From NCBI RefSeq assembly GCF_035084215.1, contig NC_090325.1, positions 182,528,001 through 182,592,000 on the forward strand: a stretch of 64,000 nt of DNA, given 5' to 3'. The notes beneath the pieces were generated by a model. The model had not been told where the DNA came from and searched no databases. It worked only from the letters and a program-made list of their open reading frames with translations. Made by a program: the position numbers and the translations under genes. Source of the DNA: Heptranchias perlo (taxonomy: Eukaryota). Positions 1,030 to 58,156 of the stretch are shown here, one piece after another. Position 1 is the stretch's first letter; every line of letters begins with the position of its first letter.

Positions 1030-1407
<378 letters not shown>

Positions 1408-5864: not shown

Positions 5865-7657
5865 ATCAAGAGTGGCTCAGTAGCACTACTACAGACCGAG
5901 CTGGCCAAGTTGTGAAGGACATAGATGCCAAACTGGCCTACGGCAGGTGGTGAGAGAACCAACACAAGGGAAAAACCTATTTGACCTCATCCTCACCAAT
6001 CTACCTGTCGCCGATGCATCTGTCCATGACAGTATTGGTAGGAGTGACCATCGCACAGTCCTTGTGGAGACGAAGTCCCCTCGTCACGCTGAAGACATTG
6101 TCCATCGTGTTGTGTGGCACAACCACCGTGCTAAATGGGATAAATCCAGAACAGACCTAATGGCTCAAAACTGGGCATCCATGAGGCTCTGTAGGCCATC
6201 AGCAGCAACAGAATTGTATTCCACCACAATCTGTAACCTCATGGCCTGGCATATCCCTCACTCTACAATTACCATCAAGCCAGGAGATTAACCCTAGTTC
6301 AATGAGGCGTGTAGAAGAGCATGCCAGGAGCAGCACCAGTCATACCTAAAAATGAGATGCCAACCTGGTGAAGCTACAACACAGGACTACATGCATGCTA
6401 AACAGCGGAAGCAGCATGCTATATGCAGAGCTAAGTGATCCCACAACAAAGGGATCAGATCAAAGCTCTGCAGTCCTGCCACATCCAGTCGTGAATGGCA
6501 GTGGACAATTAAACAACTAACGGGTGGAAGAGGCACCGTGAATATCCCTATTCTCAATGATGGCAGACCCCAGCATGTGAGTGCAAAAGTAAAGGCTGAA
6601 GCATTGGGAATCAGGGGCAAAACTCTCCAGTGGCTGGAGTCATACCCAGCACAAAGGAAGATGGTAGTGGTTGTTGGAGACCAATCATCACAGCCCCTGG
6701 ACATCGCTGCAGGAGTTTCTCAGGGCAGTGTACTAGGCCCAACCATCTTCAGCTGTTTCATCAATGACCTTCCTTCCATCATAAGGTCAGAAGTGGGGAT
6801 GTTCACTGATGATTGCACAGTGTTCAGTTCCATTCACAACCCCTCAGATAATGAAGCAGTCTGTGCCCACATGGAGCAAGACCTGGACAACATCCAGGCT
6901 TGGGCTCATAAGTAGCAACTAACATTCATGACAGACAAGTGCCAGGCAATGACTATCTCCAACAAGAGAGAGTCTAACCACCTCCCCTTGACATTCAACG
7001 GCATTACATCCTGGGGGTCACCATTGACCAGAAACTTAACTGGACCAGCCACATAAATACTGTGGCTACAAGAGCAGGTCAGAGGCTTGGTATTCTGCAG
7101 CGAGTGACTCACCTCCTGACTCCCAAAAGCCTTTCCACCATTTACAAGGCACAAGTCAGGAGTGTGATGGAATACTCTCCACTTGCCTGGATGAGTGCAG
7201 CTCCAATAACATTCAAGAAGCTCGGCACCACCCAGGACAAAGCAGCCCGCTTGATTGGCACCCCATCCACCACCCTAAACATTCACTCCCTTCACCACCG
7301 GCGCACAGTGGCTGCAGTGTGTACCATCCACAGGATGCACTGCAACAACTCACCAAGGCTTCTTCAACAGCACCTCCCAAACCCTACCCAAGGGCAGCAG
7401 GTGCGTTGGAACATCTGCACATTCCCCTCCAAGTCACACACCATCCTGACTTGGAAATATATCGCTGTTCCTTCATTGCGCTGGGTCAAAATCTTGGAAC
7501 TCCCTACCTAACAGTACTGTGGGAGAACCTTCACCACACGGACTGCAGCAGTTCAAGAAGGCGGCTCACCACCACCTTTTCAAGGGCAGTTAGGGAGGGG
7601 CAATAAATGCTGGCCTTGCCAGCAACGCCCACATCCCATGAATGAATAATTTTTAAA
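5865..7657 (+). mobile_element. CR1/L2-group non-LTR retrotransposon (distinct family), internally deleted
   Basis: Endonuclease end (LDLILTN...IGRSDH), RT motifs GVSQGSVLGP and FTDD, 3' end with AATAAA and (TGAA)n; internal jump near 6600; ATCC at both flanks. Confidence 0.85.
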
Positions 7658-7707: not shown

Positions 7708-8407
7708 TGTAGTCAATTTGGACTCTCTGTTCAATGTCCGAGACTGACAACATAATGGTTATTAGCCATACGACTTTATTTAGCACAAGTAGGAATCAAT
7801 ATCTTACAATATTTAAGCAGTAGTTTACAAAGCACAATTGAGAATTATATTACCCCGTTGTCCTTTGAGTAGAAGCCGCGACCTCGTTCTCCTTTCCTTC
7901 ATGCGGGTTCTCTCATTCTCGTTTACCTGCCTAGTACTCTCTTTTCTGTCCTCTACACTTAACAAAGACTCAGACTGCCCAGTTATACCCCAAAAAACGG
8001 AACATCCAATCAGGTATTTTCCAAAATACTCCCTTTAATTTACCCAATCATATGGACAACATGTATTTGTCCAGAAGAGACAGTGCCTTCTGGCCCTCCC
8101 TTATCTCTCCTTATCCCTAGCACAATGTTCCTCAGTCCCTGCAGTTGATAAATTACCCTATAGGCCTCGAAGGTGGCAGGAGATGGCTAGCTTCCGCCTT
8201 CCAGTATGTCTGAAGGATTGGGGGGTTACCATTATGTTCCTCCCTTAGTTTGCAATAACAAGATCCTCATGGCTTTTGGTGCCTTAGCTGCAGTAAGTTA
8301 ATTTAAAAGCAGTCTATGTTATAGTACAGTACTTTCAGCTAAAGCTGTGACTAATTAACCCTCTCGAGCCTGCTTCCCCTAAATACCTTCACCTATATTT
8401 CCTTACA
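7708..8407 (-). mobile_element. Solo LTR (700 bp)
   Basis: TGTA...TACA termini; 4-bp TSD CAGC/CTGC (one mismatch) interrupting the CR1; minus-strand TATAA near 7985 and AATAAA near 7775. Confidence 0.7.
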
Positions 8408-8833
8408 CTGCATCCTCCTCTCCAGTGAAGACAGATGCAAAGTATACATTTAGTACCTTAGCCATGCACTCTGCCTCCACAGGAACATCTTTTTTGTCCC
8501 TAATCAGTCCCATCCTTCCTTTGACTACCCTTTTACTATTAAATGTTTATAAAAGACTTTTGGGTTCCCTTTTACGTTGGCCGCTAACCTATTCTCATAT
8601 TCTCTCTTTGCCCCTCTTATTCTCTTTTTTAGATCTCCATTGTACTTTCTGTATTCAGCCTGGTTCTCTACTGTTTTATGAACCTTACATTAATCATAAG
8701 CCTCCTTTTTCTGTTTCATTTTAATCTCTATATCTTTAGTCATCCATGATGTGGAGATGCCGGTGATGGACTGGGGTTGACAATTGTAAACAATTTTACA
8801 ACACCAAGTTATAGTCCAGCAATTTTATTTTAA

Positions 8834-8874
8834 ATTCACAAGCTTTCGGAGGCTTCCTCCTTCGTCAGGTAAAT
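8834..8874 (-). ncRNA. Minimal type I hammerhead ribozyme (PLE family A)
   Basis: Sense: atttac CTGACGA a ggagg aag cctcc GAA AGCT T gtgaat (stem I, core, stem II, palindromic stem III). Confidence 0.85.
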
Positions 8875-9104
8875 GTTCAGGAGCTCCTTGAAGCCTACGC
8901 ATTTATACATCACAGAACAATACATGGTGTTTACAGACTGCCCCTGCAACTGCCCGTTGCCAAGGCAATCACCGTGTTCAGACAGAGAGGTGTCACCTGC
9001 AGAACCCCCGAATACACATTCAACAAAAAAACAAACAGGAAAAAAAAACAGAGAGAGGCAGAAACATCCGGAAGGCAGAGAAAGCCAGCAAATGACCCAT
9101 TATA

Positions 9105-10454
9105 TTAAAAACAGATAACATTTGTTCGCTGGTGGGGTAACGTGTAGCGTGACATGAACCCAAGATCCCGGTTGAGGCCGTCCTCATGGGTGCGGAACTT
9201 GGCTATCAATTTCTGCTCGACGATTTTGCGTTGTCGTGTGTCTCGAAGGCCGCCTTGGAGTACGCTTACCCGAAGGTCGGTGGATGAATGTCCATGACTG
9301 CTGAAGTGTTCCCCGACTGGGAGGGAACCCTCCTGTTTGGCGATTGTTGCGCGGTGTCCGTTCATCCGTTGTCGCAGCGTCTGCATGGTCTCGCCAATGT
9401 ACCATGCTCTGGGGCATCCTTTCCTGCAACGTATGAGGTAGACAACGTTGGCCAAGTCACAGGAGTATGAACCATGCACCTGGTGGGTGGTGTCCTCTCG
9501 TGTGATGGTGGTATCTGTGTCGATGATCTGGCATGTCTTGCAGAGGTTACCGTGGCAGGGTTGTGTGGTGTCGTGGACGCTGTTCTCTTGAAAGCTAGGT
9601 AATTTGCTGCGAACGATGGTCTGTTTGAGGTTGGGTGGCTGTTTAAAGGCGAGTAGTGGAGGTGTGGGGATGGCCATAGCGAGGTGTTTGTCCTCATTGA
9701 TGACATGTTGAAGGCTGCGGAGAACATGGCGTAGTTTCTCCGCTCCGGGGAAGTACTGGACGACAAAGGGTACTCTGTTGGTTGCGTCCCGTGTTGGTCT
9801 CCTGAGGAGGTCTATGCGATTTTTTGCTGTGGCCCGTCGGAACTGTCGATCGATGAGTCGAGCGTCATATCCCGTTCTTACTAGGGCGTCTTTCAGCGTC
9901 TGTAGGTGTCCATCGCGTTCCTCCTCGTCTGAGCAGACCCTGTGTATTCGCAGGGCCTGTCCATAGGGGATGGCCTCTTTGACGTGGTTAGGGTGGAAGC
10001 TGGAAAAGTGGAGCATCGTGAGGTTGTCCGTGGGCTTGCGGTAGAGTGAGGTGCTGAGGTGCCCGTCTTTGATGGAGATTCGTGTGTCCAAGAAAGAAAC
10101 TGATTCTGAGGAGTAGTCCATGGTGAGCTTGATGGTGGGATGGAACTTGTTGATGTTATCGTGTAGTCTCTTTAGTGATTCCTTGCCGTGGGTCCATAGA
10201 AAGAAAATGTCGTCGATGTATCTGGTGTATAGTGTTGGTTGGAGGTCTTGTGCAGTGAAGAAGTCCTGCTCGAACTTGTGCATGAAAATGTTGGCGTATT
10301 GGGGTGCGAATTTGGTCCCCATGGCTGTTCCGTGTGTTTGGGTAAAGAACTGGTTATCGAAGGTGAAGACATTGTGATCCAGGATGAAGCGGATGAGTTG
10401 TAGGATGGCTTCCGGAGATTGGCTGTTGTTGGTGTTGAGTATTGATGCTGTCGC
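9105..10454 (-). CDS. PLE reverse transcriptase (C-terminal half) plus GIY-YIG endonuclease; 5'-truncated but open
   Basis: QTHGTAMG and YIDD RT motifs, FLD, YRKPT, CxxxxCxxC linker, VVYLIRC..C...YIGET..LRQRMNGH, GLN end. Confidence 0.93.
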   Translation of the reverse strand, partial: ATASILNTNNSQSPEAILQLIRFILDHNVFTFDNQFFTQTHGTAMGTKFAPQYANIFMHKFEQDFFTAQDLQPTLYTRYIDDIFFLWTHGKESLKRLHDNINKFHPTIKLTMDYSSESVSFLDTRISIKDGHLSTSLYRKPTDNLTMLHFSSFHPNHVKEAIPYGQALRIHRVCSDEEERDGHLQTLKDALVRTGYDARLIDRQFRRATAKNRIDLLRRPTRDATNRVPFVVQYFPGAEKLRHVLRSLQHVINEDKHLAMAIPTPPLLAFKQPPNLKQTIVRSKLPSFQENSVHDTTQPCHGNLCKTCQIIDTDTTITREDTTHQVHGSYSCDLANVVYLIRCRKGCPRAWYIGETMQTLRQRMNGHRATIAKQEGSLPVGEHFSSHGHSSTDLRVSVLQGGLRDTRQRKIVEQKLIAKFRTHEDGLNRDLGFMSRYTLPHQRTNVICF

Positions 10455-10459
10455 AAAGA

Positions 10460-11885
10460 TACTGCCTCCCAAAGATACACAAAGCCAACACACCCGGACG
10501 TCCCATCGTATCAGGCAACGGAACCCTGTGTGAGAACCTCTCTGGATACATCGAGGGCATCCTGAAACCCATCGTACAGGGAACCCCCAGCTTCTGTCGC
10601 GACACTACAGACTTCCTACAAAAACTCAGTACCCACGGACCAGTTGAACCAGGAACACTTCTCACCACGATGGACGTCTCGGCACTATACACCAGTATCC
10701 CCCACGATGACGGCATCGCTGCGACAGCATCAATACTCAACACCAACAACAGCCAATCTCCGGAAGCCATCCTACAACTGCATTTTCTTTCTATGGACCC
10801 ACGGCAAGGAATCACTAAAGAGACTACACGATAACATCAACAAGTTGCATCCCACCATCAAGCTCACCATGGACTACTCCTCAGAATCAGTTTCTTTCTT
10901 GGACACACGAATCTCCATCAAAGACGGGCACCTCAGCACCTCACTCTACCGCAAGCCCACGGACAACCTCACGATGCTCCACTTTTCCAGCTTCCACCCT
11001 AACCACGTCAAAGAGGCCATCCCCTATGGACAGGCCCTGCGAATACACAGGGTCTGCTCAGACGAGGAGGAACGCGATGGACACCTACAGACGCTGAAAG
11101 ACGCCCTAGTAAGAACGGGATATGACGCTCGACTCATCGATCGACAGTTCCGACGGGCCACAGCAAAAAATCGCATAGACCTCCTCAGGAGACCAACACG
11201 GGACGCAACCAACAGAGTACCCTTTGTCGTCCAGTACTTCCCCGGAGCGGAGAAACTACGCCATGTTCTCCGCAGCCTTCAACATGTCATCAATGAGGAC
11301 AAACACCTCGCTATGGCCATCCCCACACCTCCACTACTCGCCTTTAAACAGCCACCCAACCTCAAACAGACCATCGTTCGCAGCAAATTACCTAGCTTTC
11401 AAGAGAACAGCGTCCACGACACCACACAACCCTGCCACGGTAACCTCTGCAAGACATGCCAGATCATCGACACAGATACCACCATCACACGAGAGGACAC
11501 CACCCACCAGGTGCATGGTTCATACTCCTGTGACTCGGCCAACGTTGTCTACCTCATACGTTGCAGGAAAGGATGCCCCAGAGCATGGTACATTGGCGAG
11601 ACCATGCAGACGCTGCGACAACGGATGAACGGACACCGCGCAACAATCGCCAAACAGGAGGGTTCCCTCCCAGTCGGGGAACACTTCAGCAGTCATGGAC
11701 ATTCATCCACCGACCTTCGGGTAAGCGTACTCCAAGGCGGCCTTCGAGACACATGACAACGCAAAATCGTCGAGCAGAAAGTGATAGCCAAGTTCCGCAC
11801 CCATGAGGACGGCCTCAACTGGGATCTTGGGTTCATGTCACGCTACACGTTACCCCACCAGCGAACAAATGTTATCTGTTTTTAA
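10460..11885 (+). pseudogene. PLE RT/GIY-YIG, right arm, disrupted
   Basis: Adds upstream motifs YCLPKIHK..PGRPIVS and MDVSALYTSIP. Lacks 186 bp (equivalent to 10210-10395, including GTAMG and YIDD) at ~10780. CGA>TGA stop at 11754. Confidence 0.9.
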
Positions 11886-12115
11886 TATAATGGGTCATTT
11901 GCTGGCTTTCTCTGCCTTCCGGATGTTTCTGCCTCTCTCTGTTTTTTTTTCCTGTTTGTTTTTTTGTTGAATGTGTATTCGGGGGTTCTGCAGGTGACAC
12001 CTCTCTGTCTGAACACGGTGATTGCCTTGGCAACGGGCAGTTGCAGGGGCAGTCTGTAAACACCATGTATTGTTCTGTGATGTATAAATGCGTAGGCTTC
12101 AAGGAGCTCCTGAAC

Positions 12116-12156
12116 AATTACCTGACGAAGGAGGAAGCCTCCGAAAGCTTGTGAAT
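12116..12156 (+). ncRNA. Minimal type I hammerhead ribozyme (PLE family A, right arm)
   Basis: aattac CTGACGA a ggagg aag cctcc GAAAGCTT gtgaat; one stem I mismatch relative to the left arm. Confidence 0.82.
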
Positions 12157-12754
12157 TTAAAATAAAATTGCTGGACTATAACTTGGTGTTGTAAAATTGT
12201 TTAGTCATCCAGGGAGCTATGACTTTGGTTCCCCTTCCTTTCCCCCTCGTAGGGATGTGTCTACTCTGTACCTGAACCAACTCCTCCTTGAAGGCCTCCG
12301 ATTGTTCAATTACTGTTTTGTCTACCAATTTTTGATTCCAATCCACCTGGGCAAGATCCTTTTTTAACTCACTTAAATTTACCCTCCTCCAGTTAAGCAT
12401 TTTCACATTTGATTGTTCCTTGTCCTTTTCCATAACTATTCTAAACCTAATGATATTATGATCACTATTCCCCAAATGCTCCCCCACTGAAACATGCTCC
12501 ACCTTCCCCATTTCATTCCCCAGAACTATATCCATCACTGTTTCCTTCCTATGATCCTATCATTTCTTTCCTACAGTTTCAAAGACGAGGGTTACAAAAC
12601 ACAAGTGTTTGTTTATTAATGTTTCCCAGTTTTGTTTTGTTTTTACTCCCATTTTCTTGGTTCTCAGTGCCAGTATTGAATTACAGATTGACTGACAGCT
12701 AGAGGAATCTCCATCGGAGCACAGTGACTGAACTGTACTAATCATAAGGGATAT

Positions 12755-16914: not shown

Positions 16915-17905
16915 TTTTTTTTATTCGTTCATGGGATGTGGGTGTCGCTGGCAAGGCCAGCATTTATTGCCCATCCCTATTTGCCCTTGAGAAGGTGGTG
17001 ATGAGCCACCTTCTTGAACCGCTGCAGTCCGTGTGGTGAAGGTTCTCCCGCAGTGCTGTTAGGTAGGGAGTTCCAGGATTTTGACCCAGCGACGATGAAG
17101 AAACGGTGATATATTTCCAAGTTGGGATGGTGTGCGACTTGGAAGGGAACGTGCAGGTGGTGTTGTTCCCATGTGCCTGTTGCCCTTATCCTTCTAGGTG
17201 GTAGAGGTCGCGGGTTTTGGAGGTGCTGTTGAAGAAGCCTTGGCGAGTTGCTGCAGTGCATCCTGTGGATGGTACACACTGCAGCCACGGTGCGCCGGTG
17301 GAAGGGAGTGAATGTTTAGGGTGGTGGATGGGGTGCCAATCAAGCGGGCTGTTTTGTCCTGGGTGGTGTCGAGCTTCTTGAATGTTGTTGGAGCTGCACT
17401 TATCCAGGCAAGTGGAGAGTATTCCATCACACTCCTGACTTGTGCCTTGTAGATGTTGGAAAGGCTTTGGGGAGTTAGGAGTCTGACCTGCTCTTGTAGC
17501 CACAGTATTTATATGGCTGGTCCAGTTAAGTTTCTGGTCAATGGTGACCCTCAGGATGTTGATGGTGGGGGATTCAGTGATGGTAATGCCGTTGAATGTC
17601 AAGGGGAGGTGGTTAGACCCTCTCTTGTTGGAGATGGTCATTGTCTGGCACTTATCTGGTGCAATCATCAGCAAACATCCCCATTTCTGACCTTATGATG
17701 GAGGGAAGGCCATTGATGAAGCAGCTGAAGATGATTGGGCCTAGGAGACTGCCCTGAGGAACTCCTGCAGCAATGTGCTGGGGCTGAGATGATTGGGCTC
17801 CAACAACCACTACCATCTTCCTTTGTGCTAGGTATGACTCCAGCCACTGGAGAATTTTCCCCCTGATTCCCATTGACTTCAATTTTACTAGGGCTCCTTG
17901 GTGCT
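16915..17905 (-). mobile_element. Second copy of the 5865-7657 LINE family (3' part)
   Basis: GVPQGSLLGP, FADD, VRSVMEYSPLAW and the same 3' tail. Confidence 0.88.
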
Positions 17906-22431: not shown

Positions 22432-23149
22432 AAAAACAGAGAGGTATTGCTGCAGTTATATAAGGTATTGGTGAGACCGCACCTGGAATACTGCATACAG
22501 TTTTGGTCTCCATACTTAAGAAAAGACATACTTGCTCTCGAGGCAGTACAAAGAAGGTTCACTCGGTTAATCCCAGGGATGAGGGGGTGGACATATGAGG
22601 AGAGGTTGAGTAGATTGGGACTCTACTCATTGGAGTTCAGAAGAATGAGAGGCGATCTTATTGAAACATATAAGATTGTGAAAGGGCTTGATCGGGTGGA
22701 TGCAGTAAGGATGTTCCCAAGGATGGATGAAACTAGAACGAGGGGGCATAATCTTAGAATAAGGGGCTGCTCTTTCAAAACTGAGATGAGGAGAAACTTC
22801 TTCACTCAGAGGATAGTAGGTCTGTGGAATTTGCTGCCCCAGGAAGCTGTGGAAGCTACATCATTAAATAAATTTAAAACAGAAACAGACAGTTTCCTAG
22901 AAGTAAAGGGAATTAGGGGTTACGGGGAGCGAGCAGGAAATTGGACATGAAGCTGAGTTCGGATCGGTCAAGGCCCTGTGGGTGGCGGAGCGGGCCCAGG
23001 GGCTGAGTGACCGGGTCCTGCTCCTACTTCTTGTGTTCTTTAGATTTGAAGTTAGGATCAGATCAGCCATGATCTTATTGAATGGCGGAGCAGGCTCGAG
23101 GGGCCGATTGGCCTACTCCTGCTCCTATTTCTTATGTTCTTATGTTCTT
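22432..23149 (+). mobile_element. Young CR1 3' fragment with a double 3'UTR
   Basis: Open ORF2 end 22426-22950 (VRPHLEYCIQFWSP...GLYSLEFRRMRGD); (TTCTTATG)n tail. Confidence 0.92.
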
Positions 23150-23320
23150 AAATTCTTTCCAATACTGTCCACTACACAGATATTTGCATTTTTGTTTCAA
23201 TTTCACTTTCAGGGAGCATGAAGTTTGCATTCTCACACCTTTGACCTCTGCATCTCACCTTTGGGTTCCTGTTAGCTTCGGTGCCAGGATTTACGGAGGT
23301 CAGCAGGGTAAGGACACAAG

Positions 23321-25387: not shown

Positions 25388-26068
25388 ATAAGAACATAAG
25401 AACATAAGAAATTGGAGCAGGAGTAGGCCAATCGGCCCCTCGAGCCTGCTCCGCCATTCAATAAGATCATGGCTGATCTGATCCCAACCACAAATCTAAA
25501 GAACACAAGAAGTAGGAGCAGGACCCGGCCACACAGCCCCTGGGCCCTCTGCGCCACCCACAGGGCATTGACCGATCCGAACTCAGCTTCATGTCCAATT
25601 TCCTGCCCGCTCCCCATAACCCCTAATTCCCTTTACTTCTAGAAAACTGTCCATTTCTGTTTCACACTGATTGCCTTGGCAACGGGCAGTTGAAAAAACT
25701 GTCTGTTATCACCAAGCATTGTTCTGTGAATTATAAATGCGACTTCATTTCGAGGACTTCATTTCCACATCGTTCACCTGAGGAAGGAGGTAGCCTCCGA
25801 AAGCTTGTGAATTTAAAATAAAATTGCTGGACTATAACTTGGTGTTGTAAAATTGTTTACAATTGTTTTAAATTTATCTAATGATGTAGCTTCCACAGCT
25901 TCCTGGGGCAGCAAATTCCACAGACCTACCACCCTCTGAGTGAAGAAGTTTCTCCTCATCTCAGTTTTGAAAGAGCAGCCCCTTATTCTAAGATTATGCC
26001 CCCAAGTTCTAGTTTCACCCATCTTTGGGAACATCCTTACTGCATCAAGCCCCTTCACAATCTTATAT
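25388..26068 (-). mobile_element. Young CR1 3' fragment, same subfamily as 22432-23149, inverted relative to it
   Basis: Reverse complement of 22665-23149 including the double 3'UTR; split by the PLE insert at 25663-25863. Confidence 0.92.
25663..25863 (+). mobile_element. 201-bp PLE family A 3' fragment containing a hammerhead ribozyme (25773-25811)
   Basis: ttcac CTGAGGA a ggagg tag cctcc GAAAGCTT gtgaa; 3' end matches 12140-12200; TGTTT duplication at 25658-25662 and 25864-25868. Confidence 0.88.
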
Positions 26069-26083
26069 GCGTGCAAAGAAATA

Positions 26084-31323: not shown

Positions 31324-33502
31324 GGGGCGCTAAATTGGGCCATGTAGCGCCTGTTGTTTCAAACATAACAGAAATATTCACCCTTGTGCGTTCCCTTAGT
31401 GCCTTTTGTTCGTGTGCCTTTACCTGTCCTAGTGCTCCTACGAGGTGCTTCCCCAGTGGCTGGATTTGCAGATGGCCTTGGAGGACGACCTCGAGCAACT
31501 CTGGGCCAGGAGAGCCCGGCTTCAGATTGCACCATCTCAGCATGGGCTGCAGCAGTCTGACCTGGCTGGCCGATAGGCAACAACAGGGGCACTGGCGGAG
31601 TGGCAGAGGTGGGAGCAGGAAAGCTGTCATTATGAGAGAGGACAGCAGATCTGACGGCCAATGCCATTCTCCCAGGGCGGCGCCTCAGCAATCCTGGTGA
31701 TCAGCTGTAGAACGGATTGCTGAAGTGCTGTGATGCCCTGAAAGCCCCGTTCCACTGTGGTCCCCAGACTCATGATAGCAGCAGTCTGAGCTTCCAAGGC
31801 AGCAGTCTGAGCTCCAAATGCCTTGGATGGCAGATGTTTGTGCTGCAATGGAAGTTGTGACATCAGTCATCAGGCGATACATCATGGTGGGTTCCACAGG
31901 TGTACTGATGGAGGTGACCACCAGTTCCATGTTGGAAAGGATGGGCTCCAAGCTCTGCGCAAAGCTCTGTGCCAAGTTGGAGCTGGACTCCTCCATGCCC
32001 CTTCTCATTGTGCGCAGGCTTTCTGGCAGGCTTTCCAGTGCCCCAAGCATTTGTTTGTGTACACCCATCGGCCGTCTTCTGTAACCTGGCCCATCGAAGT
32101 CCTCATCTAACTCCTCTGCAGCAGGATTAGTGAGCGACTTCACCCTCCAGCGAGCTGGCACTTGTGGTATCCGTTTCCCCCGCCCCGGCTTCTGTGCACT
32201 TGTGTCGGTGTCTCACCACATGCAGATCCCTCCTCTAACCTAATCTCTAAAGGACGCACAGTGTCAGTCTCTGAGCTGGTGGAAGCAAGTGTCAGATCGA
32301 GTGACGGTGTGGCTTCAGTGTCCTCCTCGTCCTCCTCCTCCTCCTCCTTGGACGGTGCCACCACGTTTTCTTGGGTATCTGCAATAACAAAGGGAAACAG
32401 GTTGAGTTGTGGAATGGGGAGAGGAGCAAGTAAGGCGTGCGTGTTGACAGCATCTGCAGCACATGAGTCAGAAAAGATTATGGCAGGAGGGAGATGTGGA
32501 AAAGGAGAAGGAGCATTAGATATGCAGAGACCCCCTTCATCAGGACCTCCAGCGCGGCATGTTGTTATGGCTGCAGCGACGGCCCCCCCAATGATCCAAA
32601 GCACTGTCTCCTCTAGGGGGGGGTGAGTTCGTGTAAGTGTGCCCGTCCAACCTCAGGTCCTCTTGCTGCTGGCTGTTATGCGCCACCTTTTCCTGCAAGA
32701 CAGAGGACAGTGTGTCAGTCAGTGTCCTGCACGGTGTGTGGTGATATGCCTGTCATGGTCGAATAGCTGCCAGTTTGTGTGACTTGTGATTGGTGGTTGT
32801 GTGGCCTGCAAGTGTGGTATTATGCACGGGTAAGATGCAGCATGCCGAGTCCAGCATTGCGTTTGAATAGGCAGTGTTTGTTGGTGGGTGGGTGATGGGG
32901 AGTGTGATGCATGGAGCAGTGGTGCAGTTGGTAGGATGTATCACTTGACACTTGCATTCACTCACCTTGATGACTCGTGTCAAATCATTGAACTTCTTTC
33001 GGCACTGCACCCACATGCGTGGTGAATGCTCCTGGCATTGACTTCCTGTGCCACAGCCTGCCAATGTCTGCGGAGCTGCAGTCTGGAGGGTCTCCTGCCA
33101 CCCTGCGGGTACATGTTGGCCCTCCTTTCATTCACCCCTTCCACCAGGGCCTCCGGTTCATCATCGGAGAAACGTGGAGCCCTATCTCGTGCCGGTCCTG
33201 CTATCCTCGTGGCCATTTTTCCCTTCTCCTAGTAAGCTGTTTACCTGCCATTTGAAATGTGCACCTGCACCTTTAAGAGATGCAGGCTGCTGATGACATG
33301 CGCTGTGCACGCCCCATTTCCAACTTCCTCATTCTCCGTGCAACCTCTCAACAGCGCAGGTAGCGCTGGCTGCACGGCGATATCATGGTAAGTAGCAGGC
33401 AGCACGAAGTTCACGTGCTGCCTGCGTAGGGGACATCGGGCGCGAGTTATTAGCGCATCATGCTACCCCCACCCAAAAACGGCCCTTATCAAACTTTTCC
33501 CC
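31324..33502 (-). mobile_element. Nested Myb-only Harbinger-related element with dissimilar ends
   Basis: TSD CTT at 31321-31323 and 33503-33505. Left end GGGGCGCTAAATTGGGCC; right end (reverse complement) GGGGAAAAGTTTGATAAGGGCC. Both ends recur at 41317-42957. Confidence 0.8.
31360..33216 (-). pseudogene. Three-exon Myb/SANT-like (NAIF1-type) Harbinger DNA-binding protein gene with frameshifts
   Basis: Exon 1 33216-32966 (RAPRFSDDE.EALVEGV..R...W..VA..VN...W.QCRKKFNDL, donor GTGAGT); exon 2 32692-~32532 (EKVAHN); exon 3 from 32378 (acidic tract, coiled-coil-like segment, basic end). Confidence 0.8.
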
Positions 33503-33579
33503 CTTGGTTTCCACTCAGAATTGTTCTGTTTACACATATTTACCAACTTTTCGGACCCCCTCAAACTGACACCATCAGG

Positions 33580-34772
33580 ATGGGGGGGAGGGCGCCTTGG
33601 TTGCTTTCATCAGTACATCTGAGGACGAGCAACATCTGAGGACGAGCCAAGCACGGTGTGCACTTCCACCCCTTGAAGCTCCACAACACGCTGCTGCGCC
33701 ACAGGCACCTGCACAAGAGCACAGAGGGCATCAACAGAGGGTCTACAGACCGAGGCTCAGCTTCCTGGACCTCTCTGAGGAGCAGTGCATACGGAGGCTC
33801 AGAGTCAGTCGCCAGGTGGTCGCAGACATCCGCAGCCTCCTTCCCTGCCAAGCTGCTGCCGGATGGGCCAGGCGGCATCTCATTACCCGTCGCAGTTAAA
33901 GTCACTACTGCCCTCAACTTCTTCGCCTCTGGATCATTCCAGGTTGCCACCTGTGACATCGCCGTGGTCTCTCAGTCATCTACACACAAGTGCATAAGGC
34001 AGGTCACCGACAGCTTGTTTCGCGGGGCCTCGTAATACGTCAACTTCCCCATGTTCGACCTCAGCCAGAAGGAGAGGTCAGTGGGATTCCACTCTGTGGC
34101 TGGCTTCCCACAGGTACAGGGTGCAATCGATTGCACCCATATAGCAATACGAGCACCTCCACACAAGCCAGAACTGTTCATCAATAGAAAGGGCTATCAC
34201 TCCATCAACACTCAGCTCGTTTGTGACCACCGCAAAAGATTTCTTCATGTGTGCGCCAGATTCCCTGGCAGCTGCCACGATTCGTTCATTCTGAGGGAAT
34301 TCAACATCCCAGGCCTCTTCCATGCACCGAACACCCTTAAGGGCTGGCTCTTCGGGGACAAGGGATACCCTCTGGCTCGTGACACCTCTGAGGAACCCCA
34401 TCAGCGAGCAACAGCGTCGATACAATGACAGCCACATTGCCACCAGGTCTATAATTGAACATACAATAAGGTTGCTGAAGATGCGATTTCGGTGCCTCAA
34501 TCGTTCTGGGGGAGCGCTTCAATACGCACCAGCAAGAGTGGGTCGCATTATAGTAGCGTGTTGTGTCCTGCACAACATGGCGCAACAGAGAGGGATACCG
34601 GTTGAGGAGGCCCCATCCCCCACATCCACCATCCAGTTCTGCCGTCCACATTGAGTAGGAGGCGGAGGAGGAAGAGGAGGAGGAGGTGGAGGACGAACTC
34701 ATGGGCAGAGTAACGGCTCACCTGGCTGCTCACTAGGCCAGGCAGTCACTCATATGTGAACATATCTCGTAA
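33580..34772 (+). pseudogene. Harbinger (HARBI1-type, DDE_Tnp_4) transposase, disrupted
   Basis: LPVAVKVTTALNFFASGSFQ, GFPQVQGAIDCTH, NRKGYHSIN.QLVCD, FPGSCHDS, GDKGYP, YN.SH..TR..IE.TI..LK.RFRCL; stop at 34033-34035 and at least two frameshifts. Confidence 0.93.
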
Positions 34773-35079
34773 GTGAGAAGAGTCCAGTCCTCACCCCACC
34801 TGGAAAGATCAGCGCCAAACAGCACCCCCCCCACCCCCTACACAAAACAGTCCTGCAACTACACATACACCCACTGTAAAGTGACCCACTGGGTGGCATC
34901 AAGTGTCACCGTTCGTGGTGACGCACATGAAAGGGTGCTATCACAGAAGCCAGTCAAGAATGGGCAAGACGTGGCAGTAGTGGTGAGAATGATAACATTT
35001 AATGTGACTTTAACATAAGCCAAATATAAATGAAAAACGTGACAGTCTGTCAGACACCCTTGTGCATACCTCTCGTGAT

Positions 35080-36420
35080 CTCAAAACCTTCGCCTTTCTC
35101 TTACGACTACATCTATGTGGTGCATCCCCTGTGGCTGCAGCAGAGGAAGTGGCAGGTTGCTCATGTCCATGGCCGGACTGCTTAGATATTTTCGGCCTAC
35201 GCCGTCTGGGTTTTGGAGACATGAGGGCACGTCCAAAGACTGCTCCACCTGCATCTGTGCAGGGGCAGACTCGGCCACCTGGAGAGGAGGCAGCATTGCG
35301 GGTACTGGTTGAGAGGGGGGCAACGGGTGAGATGTGGGAGCGCTTTTAGTGGTGTCCCCACTTATATGTCCCTTTTTGCCATCATCCCTCTCCTGGACCA
35401 GGCCCACATCATTCCTACCACCCTGCTGGACAACAGCGTGGAGGACATGTGTGATGCCTTGTAAGGCCCCTTCTTAAGTATCTGTCAGCCTGTTTAAGGC
35501 TGCAGAATGTTGTTCACCCTGAGTCTGTATGGCCTTTGTCAGGGCCTGAATGGACTCATTTGTGAGCTGTGCTTGAAGCTCAATGGACGCTAGCCTTCTC
35601 TCCATCGTAGACATTCCCGCACTTACCGACAACACTATCTCAGACATTTCCGCAGTTACGTGCGACACTATCTCAGACAGTTGCTCACGTTCCTGCAACA
35701 CTGCCTCAGAGATTCCCTCCTGGACCTGTGCCACCATTCCACTAATGCAGGAGTTGGACTCCTCCATCCTCTAAGCTATTGTGGAGAGTATGTGTGGCAC
35801 CTGTTCCACTACCTCGCAAATGTGCCGCTGTACCTCGATCATTCCCCTTTTGAAGGATGGCCCCCATCTGCATCCAGCTGAGCAGATCCTGGAGAAGAGT
35901 GCACCCACCGACGCGGACTCTCCACAGCTGCCCCTGCCACCAGTGTCTGCTCATGCTCACTTGTGTGTGGTGCCAACCCACCAACTGACTACTAGGACCC
36001 ACCGAGGTGTGAGTATCTGCGCTGGTGGATGGCTCGCTAAGATGTGATGTTGCGCCCTCAGAGGCCGGCAGGTTCTCTGAGGAATCGCCCTCTGCCATCA
36101 CTGCAGTCGTTGAAGGACCAGTAAGAGAACAGAAGGCAATGTTAAGCATCATCACAGATGTGTCATGTTGTGATGAGCATACTAAGGTGTGCAACATGCC
36201 AAGCATTGTTAACATCAATTCACGTTGTGTGTGATGAATGTTAAAATTGTGTCACCAGACGTTTGTGGGGTGCCAGTCTCGGGGTCCCTGACGGACAGGC
36301 ACTCGAGGGTGCGGCCGATCTGCAGGGCCTCCTCCTCTGTGTCTGTGAGGACCACTATTTGTGGAGGCCCCCCTCCAGTCCTCGCCCTCTCGCGTGCATT
36401 TTGCGCTCTCTTCTCCGGGT
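35080..36420 (-). pseudogene. Myb-partner gene of the outer Harbinger, with the Myb-domain exon missing
   Basis: EKRAQNARERARTGGGPP..LTDTEEEAL exon (36420-36255), then a Ser/acidic and coiled-coil exon ending RKRKAK; the exon joins subterminal sequence directly. Confidence 0.72.
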
Positions 36421-36747
36421 TTGCCGTCCGCCCACTACGCAGCTTTCGGACAGCAAACCCGGAAACAAGATTAATGGCCACTAATTCGGTCGCGATTGCA
36501 AGGAGAAAGGTAAGCTTTTATTATTTGCATTTGCCACACGCCCATTGACCACCCACCCCCCACACCACAGCTGCCATCCCAACGCCCTTTTAAAATTGAG
36601 CCCATTATCTTGGCCATTAATGCTGTGTAATTTTCCTACACGTGGGCCCTGAAATTCCATGCCATTTTTGATATTTCTGGGGCTTGGAATCAGGGCTACT
36701 CAATGCACTGGCCTAAGTTTTCCTTTAGTTTTCAGCCCTAAATTATT

Positions 36748-39010: not shown

Positions 39011-39054
39011 CTGTCCCTGGATTTCATCTAGGAGATTTTTAAGATGACTCTTGG

Positions 39055-39290
39055 TGAAATAAAAACAGAAAATGCTGGAAACACTTGCCAGGAAGCAGTT
39101 GTGGAGAGAGAAACATTTCAGGTCGATGACCTTTCATCAGAACTGGAAGATGTTAAAGATGAACAGCTTTTAAACAAGTGCAGAGCCAAAAAAAAAGTGG
39201 GTCAGGAACAGAACAAAAGGAAAACGCGAGCAGGGATACGGATAGTAATGAAGGTGAACGGGGTAAAAGAGACAAATACATTCTGTATTT
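39055..39290 (-). mobile_element. PLE family B pLTR fragment with a damaged hammerhead (39116-39144)
   Basis: Sense cagtt CTGATGA a aggtc atc gacct GAAA, followed by a deletion; homologous to 54535-54700. Confidence 0.75.
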
Positions 39291-47403: not shown

Positions 47404-47725
47404 TAAAAACAGAAAATGCTGGAGAAGCTCAGCAAATGAGGCAGCATCTGTGGAGAAAGAAACGGTTAACGTTTCAGGTCGAAGACTTTTCGTCAGAACT
47501 GGAAGATGTTAAAGTTTTTAAGCAAGTACAGAGCCAGGGAAGGGGGGGGGGAAAGAACAAAAGGGAAGGTCTGTGATAGGGTAGAGGGCAAAAGTGATTA
47601 AATGACAAAAGGGATGATGGTGCAAGGCAAGGAGAGTGGTAATGGGACAGGTTAAGAAACAAAAGATTGGTCAGGAGTAGCTGTAAATGGCAACAGCAGA
47701 ACCATTACCAGCACTTGCTGTCCAG
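47404..47725 (-). mobile_element. PLE family B pLTR fragment with a near-intact hammerhead (47465-47499)
   Basis: Sense gtt CTGACGA a aagtc ttc gacct GAA ACGT T aac; close match to 54535-54845. Confidence 0.82.
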
Positions 47726-52339: not shown

Positions 52340-53368
52340 TTTCAGTAAGTTTATGCTTTTTCTCATTCAGCCTTTTTATTTCTTCAAATTTCTAGTACTG
52401 TTTATCACTTTTGCTTGTTTTCAAGTGGCGGTGAGTTAATTCTTTTTCTTTCATTCAGTCTTTTTTTTTCTTCAAATGTACTCACTTCTACTACTTACCA
52501 TTTTTGATTGTTTTCAAGTAGTGATTTATTTGTGTTTTAATGCTTTTCGTTTCATTGAACCTTTTTAGTTCTTCATAATGTATTCATTTCTACTACATCT
52601 TATCAGTTTTTTATTCTCTTGTGCATCCCCGATTTCCTTCACCCCACCAACGGCAGTCGTGCCTTCAGCTGCCTAGATCCTAAGCTCTGGAATTCACTCC
52701 GTAAACCTTTCCGCCTCTCTCCTCCTTTAAGACACTCCTTAAAACCTACATCTCACCTGTCCTAATATATCTTTTTGTGGCTTGGTGTCAAATTTTGTTT
52801 GATAATGCTCCTGTGAAGCACTTTGGGATGCTTTACTACGTTAAAGGTGCTATGCAAGTGCAAGTTGTTGTTATGATGCTCCTTAAAACGTACCTCTACG
52901 ACCAAGCTTTTTGTCACCTGTCCTACTATCTCCTTATGTGGCTCGGTGTCAAATTTTGTGACCCACCCTGGGACGTTTTACTACGTTAAAGGCTCTATAT
53001 GAGCACACGTTGTAGTTTTCAAAGTAAAGTGATTTATTTCAGTGAGTTAATGCTTGTTCTTTCGTTGTCTTTTTCTTTCGTGAAATGTACTTATTCTAAT
53101 ACTTACCGCTTTGTTATTGTTTTCGAAGTAAAATGATTTATTTCAGCGAGTTAATGCTTGTTCTTTCATTCAGCCCTTTTCTTTCTTGAAATGTACTTAT
53201 TCTACATCACTTTTTGATTGAAATAAATCATTTTACTATGAAAACAATCAAAAACTGATGTAGAATAAGTACATTTCAAGAAAGAAAAAGGCTGAACGAA
53301 AGAACGAGCATTAACTCACTGCAATAAATCATTTTACGATGAAAACAGTGAGTTAATGCTCGTTCTCC
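52340..53368. repeat. Degenerate ~105-110 bp AT-rich tandem repeat with a terminal inversion; L2 tails inserted at 52620-53015
   Basis: Recurring GATTTATTTCAG(T/C)GAGTTAATGCTTGTTCTTTC...GAAATGTACTTATTCTA...TTTTTGATTGTTTTCAAGT; inverted unit at 53219-53347; a further partial unit at 49181-49239. Confidence 0.75.
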
Positions 53369-54530: not shown

Positions 54531-57500
54531 ATTAAAAACAGAAAATGCTGGAAAAGCTCAGCAAGTGAGGCAGCATCTGTGGAGAAAGAAACAGTTAATG
54601 TTTCAGGATGAAGACCTTTTATTAGAACTGGAAGATGTTAAAGTTTTTAAGCAAGCACGGGGAGGTGGGGGAAGGAAAGAACAAAAGGGAAGGTCTGTGA
54701 TAGGGTAGAGGGCAAGAGTGATTAAATGACAAAAGGGATGATGGTGCAAGACGAGGGCGGTAATGGGACAAGCTAAGAAACAAAAGATCGGTCCAGAGTA
54801 GCTGTAAATGGCAACAGCAGAACCATTACCAGCACTTGCTGTCTGAAAAAATGGAAGCAGTAGTTATGAACTGAAGTTATTGAAATCAGTGTTGAGTCCA
54901 GAAGGTTGTAAAGTGTCTAAACGAAAGATGAGATGCTGTTCCTCGAGCTTACGTTGAGTTTCCTTGGAACGGTGTAAGAAGTCGAGGTCAGAGTGGGAGT
55001 GGGATGGGGAATTAAAACGGCAAGCAACCGGCAGGTCAGGGTCACGCTTGTGAACAGAGCGGAGGTGTTCAGCAAAGCGATCACCCAATCTGCGTTTGGT
55101 CTCCCCGATGTAGAGGAGGCCGCATTGTGAGCAGTGAATACAGTATACTAAATTGAAAGTAGTACAAATAAACCACTGTTTCACCTGAAAGGAGTGTTTG
55201 AGGCCCTGGACAGTGGGAAGGGAGGAGGTGAAGGGGCAGGTATTACATCTCCTGCGCTCGCACGGGAAGGTGCGTGGGGAGGAGAGCAAGTATTGAGGGT
55301 GAAGGAAAAGTGGACCAGGGTGTTGCGGAGGAAAGAATCCTTTCGGAATGCTGAAAGGGGAGGGGAGGGGAGGGGAAGATCCGTTTGGTGGTGGGATCAT
55401 GCTGGAGGTGGCGGAAATGGCGAAGGATGATACGTTGAATGTGAAGGCTAGTGGGGTGGAAGGTGAGGACAAGGGGGACCCTTTCATGGTTCTGGAAGAG
55501 AGGGGAAAGGGTCAGGGCAGAAGTGCGGGAAATAGGACGGACATGGTCAAGGACCCTGTCATCTACAGTCCTCAGTCAAGGAAAAAGGAAGACACATGCT
55601 GGCGTGGAAGGTGGCATCATCAGAACAGATGCGACGGAAACAGAGAAACTCGGAGAAGGGAATAGAGTCCTTACAGGAAGCGGGGTGGGAGGAAGTGTAA
55701 AATCAAGGTAGCTCTGGGAGTCGGTGGATAGATATTTGATGTCAGCCTGTCCCCAGAAATAGAAATAGAGAAGTCGAGGAAGGGAAGAGTCGGATGTGGA
55801 CCATGTGAAGGCAAGGGAAGGGTGCAAATTGGAAGCAAAGTTGATGAAATTTTCCAGTTCGGGACGAGAGCAGGAAGCAGCACCAATACAGTCATCGATG
55901 TACCAGAAAAAGAAGTAAGGGAGGGGACCTGAGTAGGACTGGAACAAGGAATGTTCCACGTATCGCTCAAAAAGGCCGGCATAGCTGGGATCCATACGGG
56001 TTCCCATAGCGACACCTTTTATTTGGAGGAAGTGAGTGGAGTCAAAGGAGAAGTTGTTCAATGTAAGAACAAGTTTAGCCAGGCGGAGGAGGGTGGTGAT
56101 GGATGGGGACTGGTTGGGCCTCCGTTCAAGGAAGAAGCGGAGGGCCCGCGGGCAGTCCTGGTGGGGGATGGAGGTGTAGAGGGACTGGGCATCCATGTTG
56201 AAAAGGACACGGTTAGGGCCGGGGAACAGGAAATTGTTAAAGTGGCAGAGGTGGTCGGAAGAGACTGGACAAGGGGAGAAAAATTGAGTCGAGAAAGGAG
56301 GAAATAAGTTCTTTGGGGCAAGAACAGGCTGAAACGATGAGTCTCCCAGGGCAGTCTTGTTTGTGGATCTTGGGAAAGTAATAGAAGTGGGCTGTGCAGT
56401 GTTGGGGGACTGTGAGGTTGGAGGCCGTGGTGGGCGGGCGCGGGGAGATCTCCAGAGGAGATGAGGTCAGTGATGGTCTGGGAAACTATGGCTTGATGTT
56501 CGGCAGTGGAGTCATGGTCCAGGGGGAGGTAGGAGGAGATGTCAGAGATTTGGCGTTAAGCCTCTGCAGGGTAGAGGTCTGTTCGCCACACAGCAACAGC
56601 GCCGCCCTTGTTGGCAGGTTTAATAACAATTTCAGGGTTGGACCTGAGAGAACGGAGTGCTGCAAGTTCAGAGGGAGGTAGGTTAGAGTGAGCAAGGGGA
56701 GCAGAGAAATTGAGACAGCCGATGTCACACTGGCAGTTCGCAATGAAAAGATCAAGAGAGGGTTGGGTCCATGTGGAACAAGAATTCTGAATACGGGAGA
56801 ATGGGTCCACTGTGCGGTGGGGGGGCGAAACTCCTGGCCAAAGAAGTGGGCATGGAGGCGAAGGCGACGGAAGAAGAGCTCAGCACGTGTCGAGCTCGAA
56901 ATTAGTTGAGGTGGGGGCGCAAGGGGATGAAGCTATGGCCTTTGCTGAGGATTGATCGTTCTGGGTCAGAGAGGGGAAGGTCAGAGGGAATGGTGAAAAC
57001 ATGACAAAGGGTGACATTGGAGGGAGGGATGGGGTCAGAGGAAAGTGAAGGGGAAGAAGAATCAAGAGGGGTGTTGGTATCTAAGAGTTGTTGAAGCTTG
57101 CAATCCTTGACCCCTGAAAGGAAGAAGAAAAGTTTTTTGTTAAAGCGCCGGATGAGGTGAAGGATGAAATAGAACTGTGGACCAGGACAACTCTGAAATA
57201 GTGAGTCGGTGCTGCTGAAGAGAGAGGTCGAGAGCGTGCATGTGACGGCGCATGGAGTTGAGCATGGATCTCAGGAAGCGACAAAAGCAGTGGTTCGAGG
57301 AATGCTGAATATCATGGAGATACCTGTAATCACAGGTAGATCTGAAACATGAAAGGTGGAGTTTAAGTTGGAAACCACATGGAATAATGTGGAGATGCCG
57401 GTGATGGACTGGGGTTGACAAATGTAAGGAATCTTACAACACCAGGTTATAAGTTGGACTATAACCTGGTGTTGTAAGATTCCTTACACATGGAATAAGT

Positions 57501-57803
57501 CAGAGCTGGAGACGGTTGCTGAGGAAAGAGATGTGGCTGTGAAAGCAACTTTTAGAAGAAACCTATTCAAACGTGAGAAGGGAAACAGGAAGCAATGAAG
57601 GTGAACAAGGTAAAAAAGACAAACGGAAAGCCCGTCAGAGAGAAGAGCAGAACTTCTTCAAGGTGGGCATTCCTGGAAGAGACGTGGCAGTGAATTAAAC
57701 ACTAAATCAAAAGCAAAACACTGTGGATGCTGAAAATCTGAAATAAAAATAGAAAATGCTGAAAAAGCTCAGCAAGTGAGGCAGCATCTTTGGCGAAAGA
57801 GTT
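54531..57803 (-). mobile_element. Near full-length PLE family B with partial-tandem pLTR, decayed, antisense in PIGG intron 1
   Basis: ORF start ~57670 (MPTLKKF); KPANKGGAV, MDAQSLYTSIP, QIKGVAMG, YIDD, VYCIHC..C...YIGETKRRLGDRFAEH; direct pLTR repeat at 54535 and 57746; TSD TTCACTCTTTGT at 54519-54530 and 57804-57815; decayed hammerhead 54592-54630. Confidence 0.92.
57388..57486. mobile_element. 99-bp palindromic micro-insertion of PLE family A (variant subfamily) termini
   Basis: TSD CACATGGAATAA at 57376-57387 and 57487-57498; 29-bp arms 57423-57451 and 57460-57488; left end matches 8750-8782. Confidence 0.9.
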
Positions 57804-58062: not shown

Positions 58063-58156
58063 CTCACTCACCTGACGAAGGAGATAATCTCCGAAAGCTT
58101 GTGATTTTCAAATAAAACTGTTGGACTATAACCTGGTGTTGTAAGATTCCTTACAT
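58063..58156 (+). ncRNA. 94-bp PLE insert consisting of a hammerhead ribozyme (58068-58104) plus the 3' end
   Basis: tcac CTGACGA a ggaga taa tctcc GAAAGCTT gtga; AATAAA at 58111; TSD TTGACAGA at 58055-58062 and 58157-58164. Confidence 0.88.

Follow-up and report, generated by a model that had tools for sequence, protein, structure and literature searches.

The insert and its target site

The stretch analysed here, referred to as the window, comprises 64,000 nucleotides (nt) of contig NC_090325.1 of the Heptranchias perlo assembly GCF_035084215.1 (positions 182,528,001 to 182,592,000), and all coordinates given are those of the window. Between 8747 and 12199 it contains an insert which, judged from its sequence, is an endonuclease-bearing (EN+) Penelope-like element (PLE) with a Neptune-type linker, dead and built of two arms. 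An earlier note on this DNA had placed the limits of the insert at exactly these positions. The insert is bounded by identical 12-mers, TTTAGTCATCCA, and interrupts an old fragment of a long interspersed nuclear element (LINE), which we take from its sequence to be CR1-like and for which Pfam gave no match. When the 12-mer is counted once, the reading frame of the host LINE runs through the empty site, and 142 contigs of paralogous LINE copies (run X1) depart from the window at 8746 and then resemble the right flank. The 12-mers are therefore a genuine target site duplication (TSD) and not a chance repeat, which, with their identity, bears out the proposal of a single 12-bp TSD around both arms. 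The read comparison covers contigs of 4 of 24 sequencing runs, aligned to the stretch 8000-10719; this copy's own central, deletion and flank joints were not among the matches listed. All eight runs of one organism (organism A) share one sample, possibly that of the assembly, and do not provide independent support. The observed/expected ratio of CpG is 0.74-0.91 within the insert and 0.13-0.42 in the adjoining bins, indicating that the insert is young relative to its target.

The insert had been described as palindromic. Its arms are indeed complementary, but since 571 nt separate the long arms, the structure is a spaced inverted repeat and falls short of a perfect palindrome. Six substitutions in 1,423 nt (0.42%, 95% confidence interval 0.15-0.92%) distinguish the long arms (8787-10209 and 10781-12203), in agreement with the half dozen estimated by eye. 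Three of the six fall in CpG (3 of 144 CpG sites, against 3 of 1,279 other sites). An inner inverted pair of 60 nt (10396-10455 and 10720-10779) has no difference at all. The left arm retains the GTAMG and YIDD motifs inside a stop-free frame of 449 codons (9108-10454). In the right arm both motifs are missing, since 186 nt between CAT repeats are replaced by one G, a net loss of 185 nt. The right arm in turn extends 260 nt further 5' (10460-10719), and these have no partner in the left arm. Alignment thus confirmed what had been noticed about the catalytic core and the longer 5' reach. The deletion is not a spliced intron, as no GT-AG borders produce the observed joint in either orientation.

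The left arm ends at 10455. Because the ordinary element diverges from the window letters upstream of 10460 in all four runs aligned, the right arm must start at 10460, leaving a junction insert between the two. The 9-nt word CAAAGATAC is present at 10454 and recurs 16 nt downstream, at 10470. Only 2 of the 256 possible 4-nt inserts yield a templated word of at least 9 nt within 50 nt, so that the short templated duplication reported at the joint is confirmed.

Table 1. Positions of the insert, its parts, related copies and neighbouring gene features in the window
Feature	Position	Strand	Remarks
TSD, left copy	8735-8746	none	12 bp; sequence identity, LINE frame
TSD, right copy	12200-12211	none	First 4 nt also fit continuation of the element
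Tail, left arm only	8747-8786	-	40 nt, or 44 with 4 nt common to right arm and TSD
Left arm, 5'-truncated PLE	8747-10455	-	1,709 nt; RT core (GTAMG, YIDD), thumb, C-x4-C-x2-C linker, GIY-YIG endonuclease
Junction insert	10456-10459	none	4 nt; templated from 10470-10478, making the 9-nt duplication
Right arm, 5'-truncated, tail-less	10460-12199	+	1,740 nt (1,925 without deletion); stop codon at 11754
Deletion joint, right arm	10779-10781	+	186 nt of RT core swapped for one base; CAT repeats flank
Hammerhead motif, left arm	8836-8874	-	Minimal type I, in pseudo-LTR (long terminal repeat); stem I, CUGACGA core, stem II, GAAA, palindromic stem III
Hammerhead motif, right arm	12116-12154	+	One stem I pair disrupted at 12117
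Target, old LINE fragment, presumably CR1-like	8400-12560	-	Limits of the examined region, not LINE ends; interrupted by insert
Sister-subfamily insertion, complete, independent	57388-57486	none	99 bp; 12-bp TSD at 57376-57387 and 57487-57498
Single non-inverted tail-less 3' copy with hammerhead motif	25668-25863		TSD 5 nt; paralogous empty site agrees
Single non-inverted tail-less 3' copy with hammerhead motif	58063-58156		Putative TSD 8 nt; begins just upstream of hammerhead
First coding exon, calcyon/NSG family	1123-1306	-	Two possible acceptors; ATG 1254, donor after 1123; Pfam E 2.8e-4 on 24 residues, below cut-off
Candidate donor of a non-coding first exon	2045	-	Strong, by sequence; 740 nt upstream of coding exon

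Identity of the element

Of a PLE protein, the left arm retains the 449 C-terminal codons, comprising the reverse transcriptase (RT) core, the thumb, the linker and the GIY-YIG endonuclease. Pfam searches with the arm translation found RVT_1 (E 1.6e-6) and GIY-YIG (E 5e-4), both narrowly short of the curated cut-offs; a first Pfam search had found nothing for three of four pieces. Two cysteines of a CCHH motif lie between the GIY and YIG boxes of the translation, and a CCHH motif in this position is described as defining the EN+ PLE endonuclease (PMC8557442). There are 37 longer protein relatives, the best of which (881 amino acids) has 65% identity across 98% of the query, and partial matches to Chiloscyllium and Mustelus proteins reach 76-77%, which points to a host among the cartilaginous fishes. 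Since the arms begin near residues 424-440 and 357 of the best relative, both are 5'-truncated and neither could encode the whole protein. The linker of the left arm is of the CX2-5CxxC type (C-x4-C-x2-C), and 31 of the 37 relatives have a corresponding motif. According to the clade descriptions in PMC8557442, this zinc-finger-like motif between RT and endonuclease is found in Neptune and Nematis and is lacking in Penelope/Poseidon, so that membership of the Penelope/Poseidon clade is ruled out. The label Neptune-type refers to the linker alone, which is common to Nematis.

Several insertion hallmarks of EN+ PLEs are present here: 5' truncation, an inverted adjoining copy, a tail on one side and a TSD. 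The tail had been put at about 35 nt; it measures 40-44 nt, 4 nt of which are held in common with the TSD, and stands at the upper edge of the 30-40-nt range of PLE tails. Two other classes of element were considered and rejected. A product of L1-type twin priming is excluded by the absence of poly(A) and by the overlap of the arms over about 1.5 kb, and a terminal inverted repeat or fold-back DNA transposon by the unlike termini, only one of which has the tail, and by arms that code for RT and endonuclease. The locus has no tandem copy. Joints that return to the tip of the tail in runs X1 and X5 (9018 to 8746 and 8870 to 8746) suggest that tandem copies and short hammerhead-bearing monomers exist elsewhere in the genome.

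Using a minimal feature set for the hammerhead (PMC4209133), we found the core, the extra base after A9, G10.1-C11.1 and the palindromic 15.2-16.2 in all four family copies that span the motif. A pattern search of the window gave five matches, four in the family of the insert and one in a second PLE family. In the alignment of the few copies available, 95.5% of cells pair, against 20-48% when the pairing is slid, and 175 of 500 shuffles equal the 95.5%, so that the covariation falls short of significance. Rfam gave no hammerhead match at E up to 5, and a PDB sequence search gave no match.

The second PLE family, older and frameshifted, lies at 54533-56932 on the reverse strand and has about 30% protein identity to the relative of the first family. 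Its end fragments are found at 39047-39158, 47404-47722 and 57743-57800, with a hammerhead-like motif at 39140. The first family is also present in two other organisms at low depth, with 99.4% identity in run X9 (7 differences in 1,115 nt) and 99.6% in run X11 (4 in 1,072 nt). This comparison was made over 9295-10719, and the flanking LINE was unmatched at 90%. Contamination by the high-copy host, a recent horizontal transfer and young activity common to the organisms are all conceivable sources of the near-identity.

Origin of the two arms

The earlier note had proposed that both arms arose in a single event. At all 11 family-polymorphic sites checked, both arms hold the window letter, and 40-81% of the X1 family depth differs there; the sites are linked, so that 3e-5, the product obtained by treating them as unlinked, is too strong a figure. 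The sole near-fixed difference from the family, at 9454, is private to the left arm. There is one TSD, outside both arms, and none at the centre. Based on the shared haplotype and the single outer TSD, one event from one source haplotype is very likely, as had been proposed. Neither arm is a plain copy of the other, as the tail and the 186 nt belong to the left arm alone and the 260 nt at the 5' side to the right arm alone.

The window holds three further fragments of this family, which serve as internal controls. The sister-subfamily insertion at 57388 has the same head-to-head geometry, with a tailed left arm of 64 nt, a 1-nt insert and a tail-less right arm of 34 nt, and here too the tail-less arm outreaches the tailed one on the 5' side, by 7 nt. 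The other two fragments are single, non-inverted copies whose ends lie in the inner zone, where the right arm also ends; because they are single, this end must be the primed one. Measured from position A9 of the hammerhead, the outer ends lie at +116 (the tail of the left arm) and about +113, and the inner ends at +72 to +80 (at most +83 counting shared bases). The ends of the arms therefore fall into two zones, some 35-45 nt apart. At each of the four inner ends, 2-4 nt agree with the first letters of the respective TSD (4, 2, 3 and 3, sum 12; P ~1e-4).

The mechanism that best accounts for these observations, and which we consider probable, is priming on both target strands, with cDNAs begun at an outer and an inner start site on the RNA and their ends joined by the templated 4-nt patch. 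The protein of the element would cut the two target strands 12 bases apart, and each strand would prime one cDNA. On the top strand, priming at the outer site would give the tailed left arm of 1,709 nt; the bottom strand would pair over 4 nt and prime at the inner site, giving the tail-less right arm. Both cDNAs would halt early, and repair would join their ends, leaving the short patch. The RNA template would come from a single source locus, and the structure would look alike whether that RNA was a tandem transcript, two separate molecules or the same stretch copied twice. The loss of 186 nt could date to the copying or to a later time. In vitro, a purified PLE protein from Anolis cleaves and extends both strands and uses two internal RNA start sites that bracket the tail, the main one 111-118 nt past the start of hammerhead stem II (Frangieh et al. 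2024, PMC11167929). Two cDNAs primed on opposite strands from different RNA positions, as the earlier note suggested, are therefore supported by the TSD, by the haplotype shared at 11 of 11 sites, by the end zones and by these in vitro data.

Several points weigh against this reading. The mechanism is read from end products, with no intermediate observed, and microhomology and templated patches also result from fold-back and from later repair. The linkage of the sites and possible gene conversion, which could also homogenise the arms, somewhat weaken the argument for one event. In the reactions described in PMC11167929, synthesis starts at sites non-homologous to the target, and the two sites are used without strand preference; for that reason the in vitro work alone leaves the one-sided tail unexplained. 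Craig et al. 2021 attribute the tail to endonuclease resolution (PMC8557442), and Arkhipova et al. 2013 take head-to-head PLE junctions as the product of self-priming (PMC3846280). The concentration of changes on the right arm could also mean that a second template, damaged beforehand, was used, as discussed below.

Alternatively, one long tailed cDNA on one strand could have folded back and copied itself. The copy would then have joined the second end of the target while still lacking some 40 nt at the start, and central deletions would have followed, of 260 nt in the left arm and 186 nt in the right. This would account directly for the identical haplotypes and the near-equal arms, and the templated patch at the joint would suit it, such patches being the usual mark of break repair. 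It also has the precedent of the self-priming proposed for head-to-head PLEs (PMC3846280). However, two additional deletions are needed, since each arm has sequence absent from the other, and the right arm ends in the very zone where single copies are primed. In the 99-bp sister the tail-less arm also reaches further 5', with no room for such deletions, and the joint of the insert shows no hairpin remnant. Two-strand priming is favoured over simple fold-back because each arm has unique sequence, both ends fall in start-site zones and the inner ends show short pairing with the primer; we regard fold-back as unlikely, though worth keeping in view.

The length of the arms had been singled out as a special mark of the insert, which is not borne out. 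The summed contig depth of run X1 declines from 3' to 5' with a scale of about 1.3 kb, implying roughly that 28% of copies reach 1.7 kb and that in 8% of independent pairs both would; contig depth is no copy number, and the curve is an estimate of shape only. Large inverted repeats of varying size are also reported for Penelope of Drosophila virilis (PMC2377424, Fig. 1 legend). As to the near-equality of the present arm lengths, its chance under independent truncation is about 1-2% for a deletion made before or during synthesis and 9-15% for a later one, in a test made post hoc. Both arms could perhaps have been made simultaneously by the two RTs of one dimer, the tail-less enzyme ahead and the tailed one behind, stopping together, an idea that we hold to be rather doubtful. 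The Anolis PLE protein is predicted to be a dimer (PMC11167929), and the 260-nt lead of the right arm equals a head start of 44 nt, plus 185 nt skipped, plus 31 nt. Counter to coupled synthesis are the unequal arms of the 99-bp sister (64 and 34 nt) and an opposite-strand joint in run X1 (9166/10196), which would correspond to arms of about 420 and 1,450 nt if head to head. If true, coupled synthesis would mean that each target strand takes its own PLE start site, that these sites keep a set distance from the hammerhead in different clades alike, and that long-armed insertions are a record of it.

A variant of the single event, with two source copies as RNA donors, of which the right one already had the deletion and some of the substitutions, is quite improbable. 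Five of the six substitutions and the deletion sit on the right arm, the left arm matches the contigs of runs X9 and X11 at 9170, 9209, 9236 and 10143, and the substitution at 8873 is polarised by stem I pairing and by the sister copies. Nevertheless, this asymmetry is not significant (p = 0.22), and the arms agree at all of the family-polymorphic sites.

An assembly artefact, in which a fold-back chimeric read or a collapsed repeat produced the mirror, is very improbable. Assemblies are known to have difficulty with inverted PLE structures (PMC8557442), but here the arms carry unique segments and six substitutions, half of them CpG decay. The mirror symmetry ends precisely at the TSD, and each flank holds a different half of the same LINE, the two being collinear; a fold-back read would have mirrored the flank too. 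Two independent insertions at one site followed by gene conversion are scarcely credible, even in a family so abundant that its summed contig depth exceeds that of a unique flank contig by five orders of magnitude (a ratio that is not a copy number), given the single TSD with none between the arms, the shared haplotype and the recurrence of the geometry at 57388.

Surroundings of the insert and known systems

The deletion had been thought to stabilise the palindrome by enlarging its spacer. Before the deletion the arms were already separated by 264 nt, and the 60-bp inner stem still stacks while 186 nt loop out. In yeast, rearrangement falls 20-fold with a 200-bp spacer and 31-fold with one of 1.5 kb (PMC10164571). 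As a 200-bp spacer already gives most of the protection, little stability would be gained from the deletion, and the suggestion is weak.

The first coding exon of a gene of the calcyon/NSG family lies upstream of the insert in window coordinates, on the reverse strand (Table 1). The strong candidate donor at 2045 and the CpG-rich DNA at 1.5-2.5 kb suggest that the promoter of this gene lies there, about 6.5 kb from the insert. The insert is about 6.7 kb beyond the candidate first exon and hence probably outside the transcript. An intronic position, which the acceptor upstream of the coding exon might indicate, is disfavoured by the same donor and CpG-rich DNA. Read-through RNA would, by the complementarity of the arms, give a long duplex. 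Run X5, which is an RNA run by guess only, contains the family and nothing specific to this locus. An effect of the insert on the neighbouring neuronal gene finds no support in this analysis, and no function is implied for the insert.

Other repeats in the window include two inverted pairs of LINE fragments several kb apart, at 22667-23150 and 25389-26069 (92-95%) and at 6597-7649 and 16921-17881 (83-91%); the latter pair flanks the PLE insertion on both sides. An imperfect self-inverted AT-rich stretch with internal repeats (53015-53347) is perhaps a MITE-like repeat (miniature inverted-repeat transposable element), with relatives at 52.3-52.9, 37.0-37.2, 43.1 and 59.4-59.9 kb. A GC-rich block at about 31500-36500 contains a frameshifted DDE_Tnp_4 (Harbinger-type) transposase (33640-34425, Pfam E 3e-18).

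Among known systems, L1 twin priming (bioRxiv 10.1101/2024.08.27.596794; PMC10191854) resembles the insert in that both nicks prime, the products are joined head to head within one TSD, and the joint may bear small duplications or templated inserts. In contrast, L1 primes at poly(A) and at an internal site and its segments barely overlap, whereas the starts here are at most 44 nt apart, 1.5 kb is duplicated and poly(A) is absent. The commonest form of Penelope in D. virilis (PMC2377424, Fig. 1C) differs from the insert in that it belongs to the Penelope/Poseidon clade, has no linker zinc finger and contains a full open reading frame in its tandem structure.

The Poseidon element PAc of Anolis carolinensis (PMC11167929) is alike in having two starts that bracket the tail and in the cutting and extension of both strands. 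Its main start, the only one for which position was compared, is numerically close to the outer ends found here (+113 to +116). It differs in clade; at the hammerhead of the insert there is no ATG, and all four inner ends here share 2-4 nt with the target, against no homology between primer and RNA in the reactions reported for PAc. The account of those reactions offers no model of inverted insertions.

A close counterpart is the canonical EN+ PLE unit drawn by Craig et al. 2021 (PMC8557442, Fig. 2) and represented by Pen2a_Av and Pen2 of Adineta vaga (PMC3846280), which has the same 5' truncation, head-to-head inverted neighbour, one-sided tail of 30-40 bp and hammerhead in the pseudo-LTR. 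Its TSD is 9-10 bp, against 12 bp here, and the inverted parts described in these papers are about 180-220 bp, against 1.7 kb for both arms here (PMC8557442, PMC3846280). The insert also lacks the tandem copy, and its joint is a templated insert instead of a small palindrome. As a single locus it is of small import; it shows a published insertion layout in a clean and long form, and adds a data point on how PLEs make inverted and tailed ends. PLEs with truncated copies placed head to head, with a 30-40-nt tail on a single end and with large inverted repeats that vary in size have all been published (PMC8557442, PMC3846280, PMC2377424), and the layout of the insert is thus one already described, ordinary apart from the long arms.

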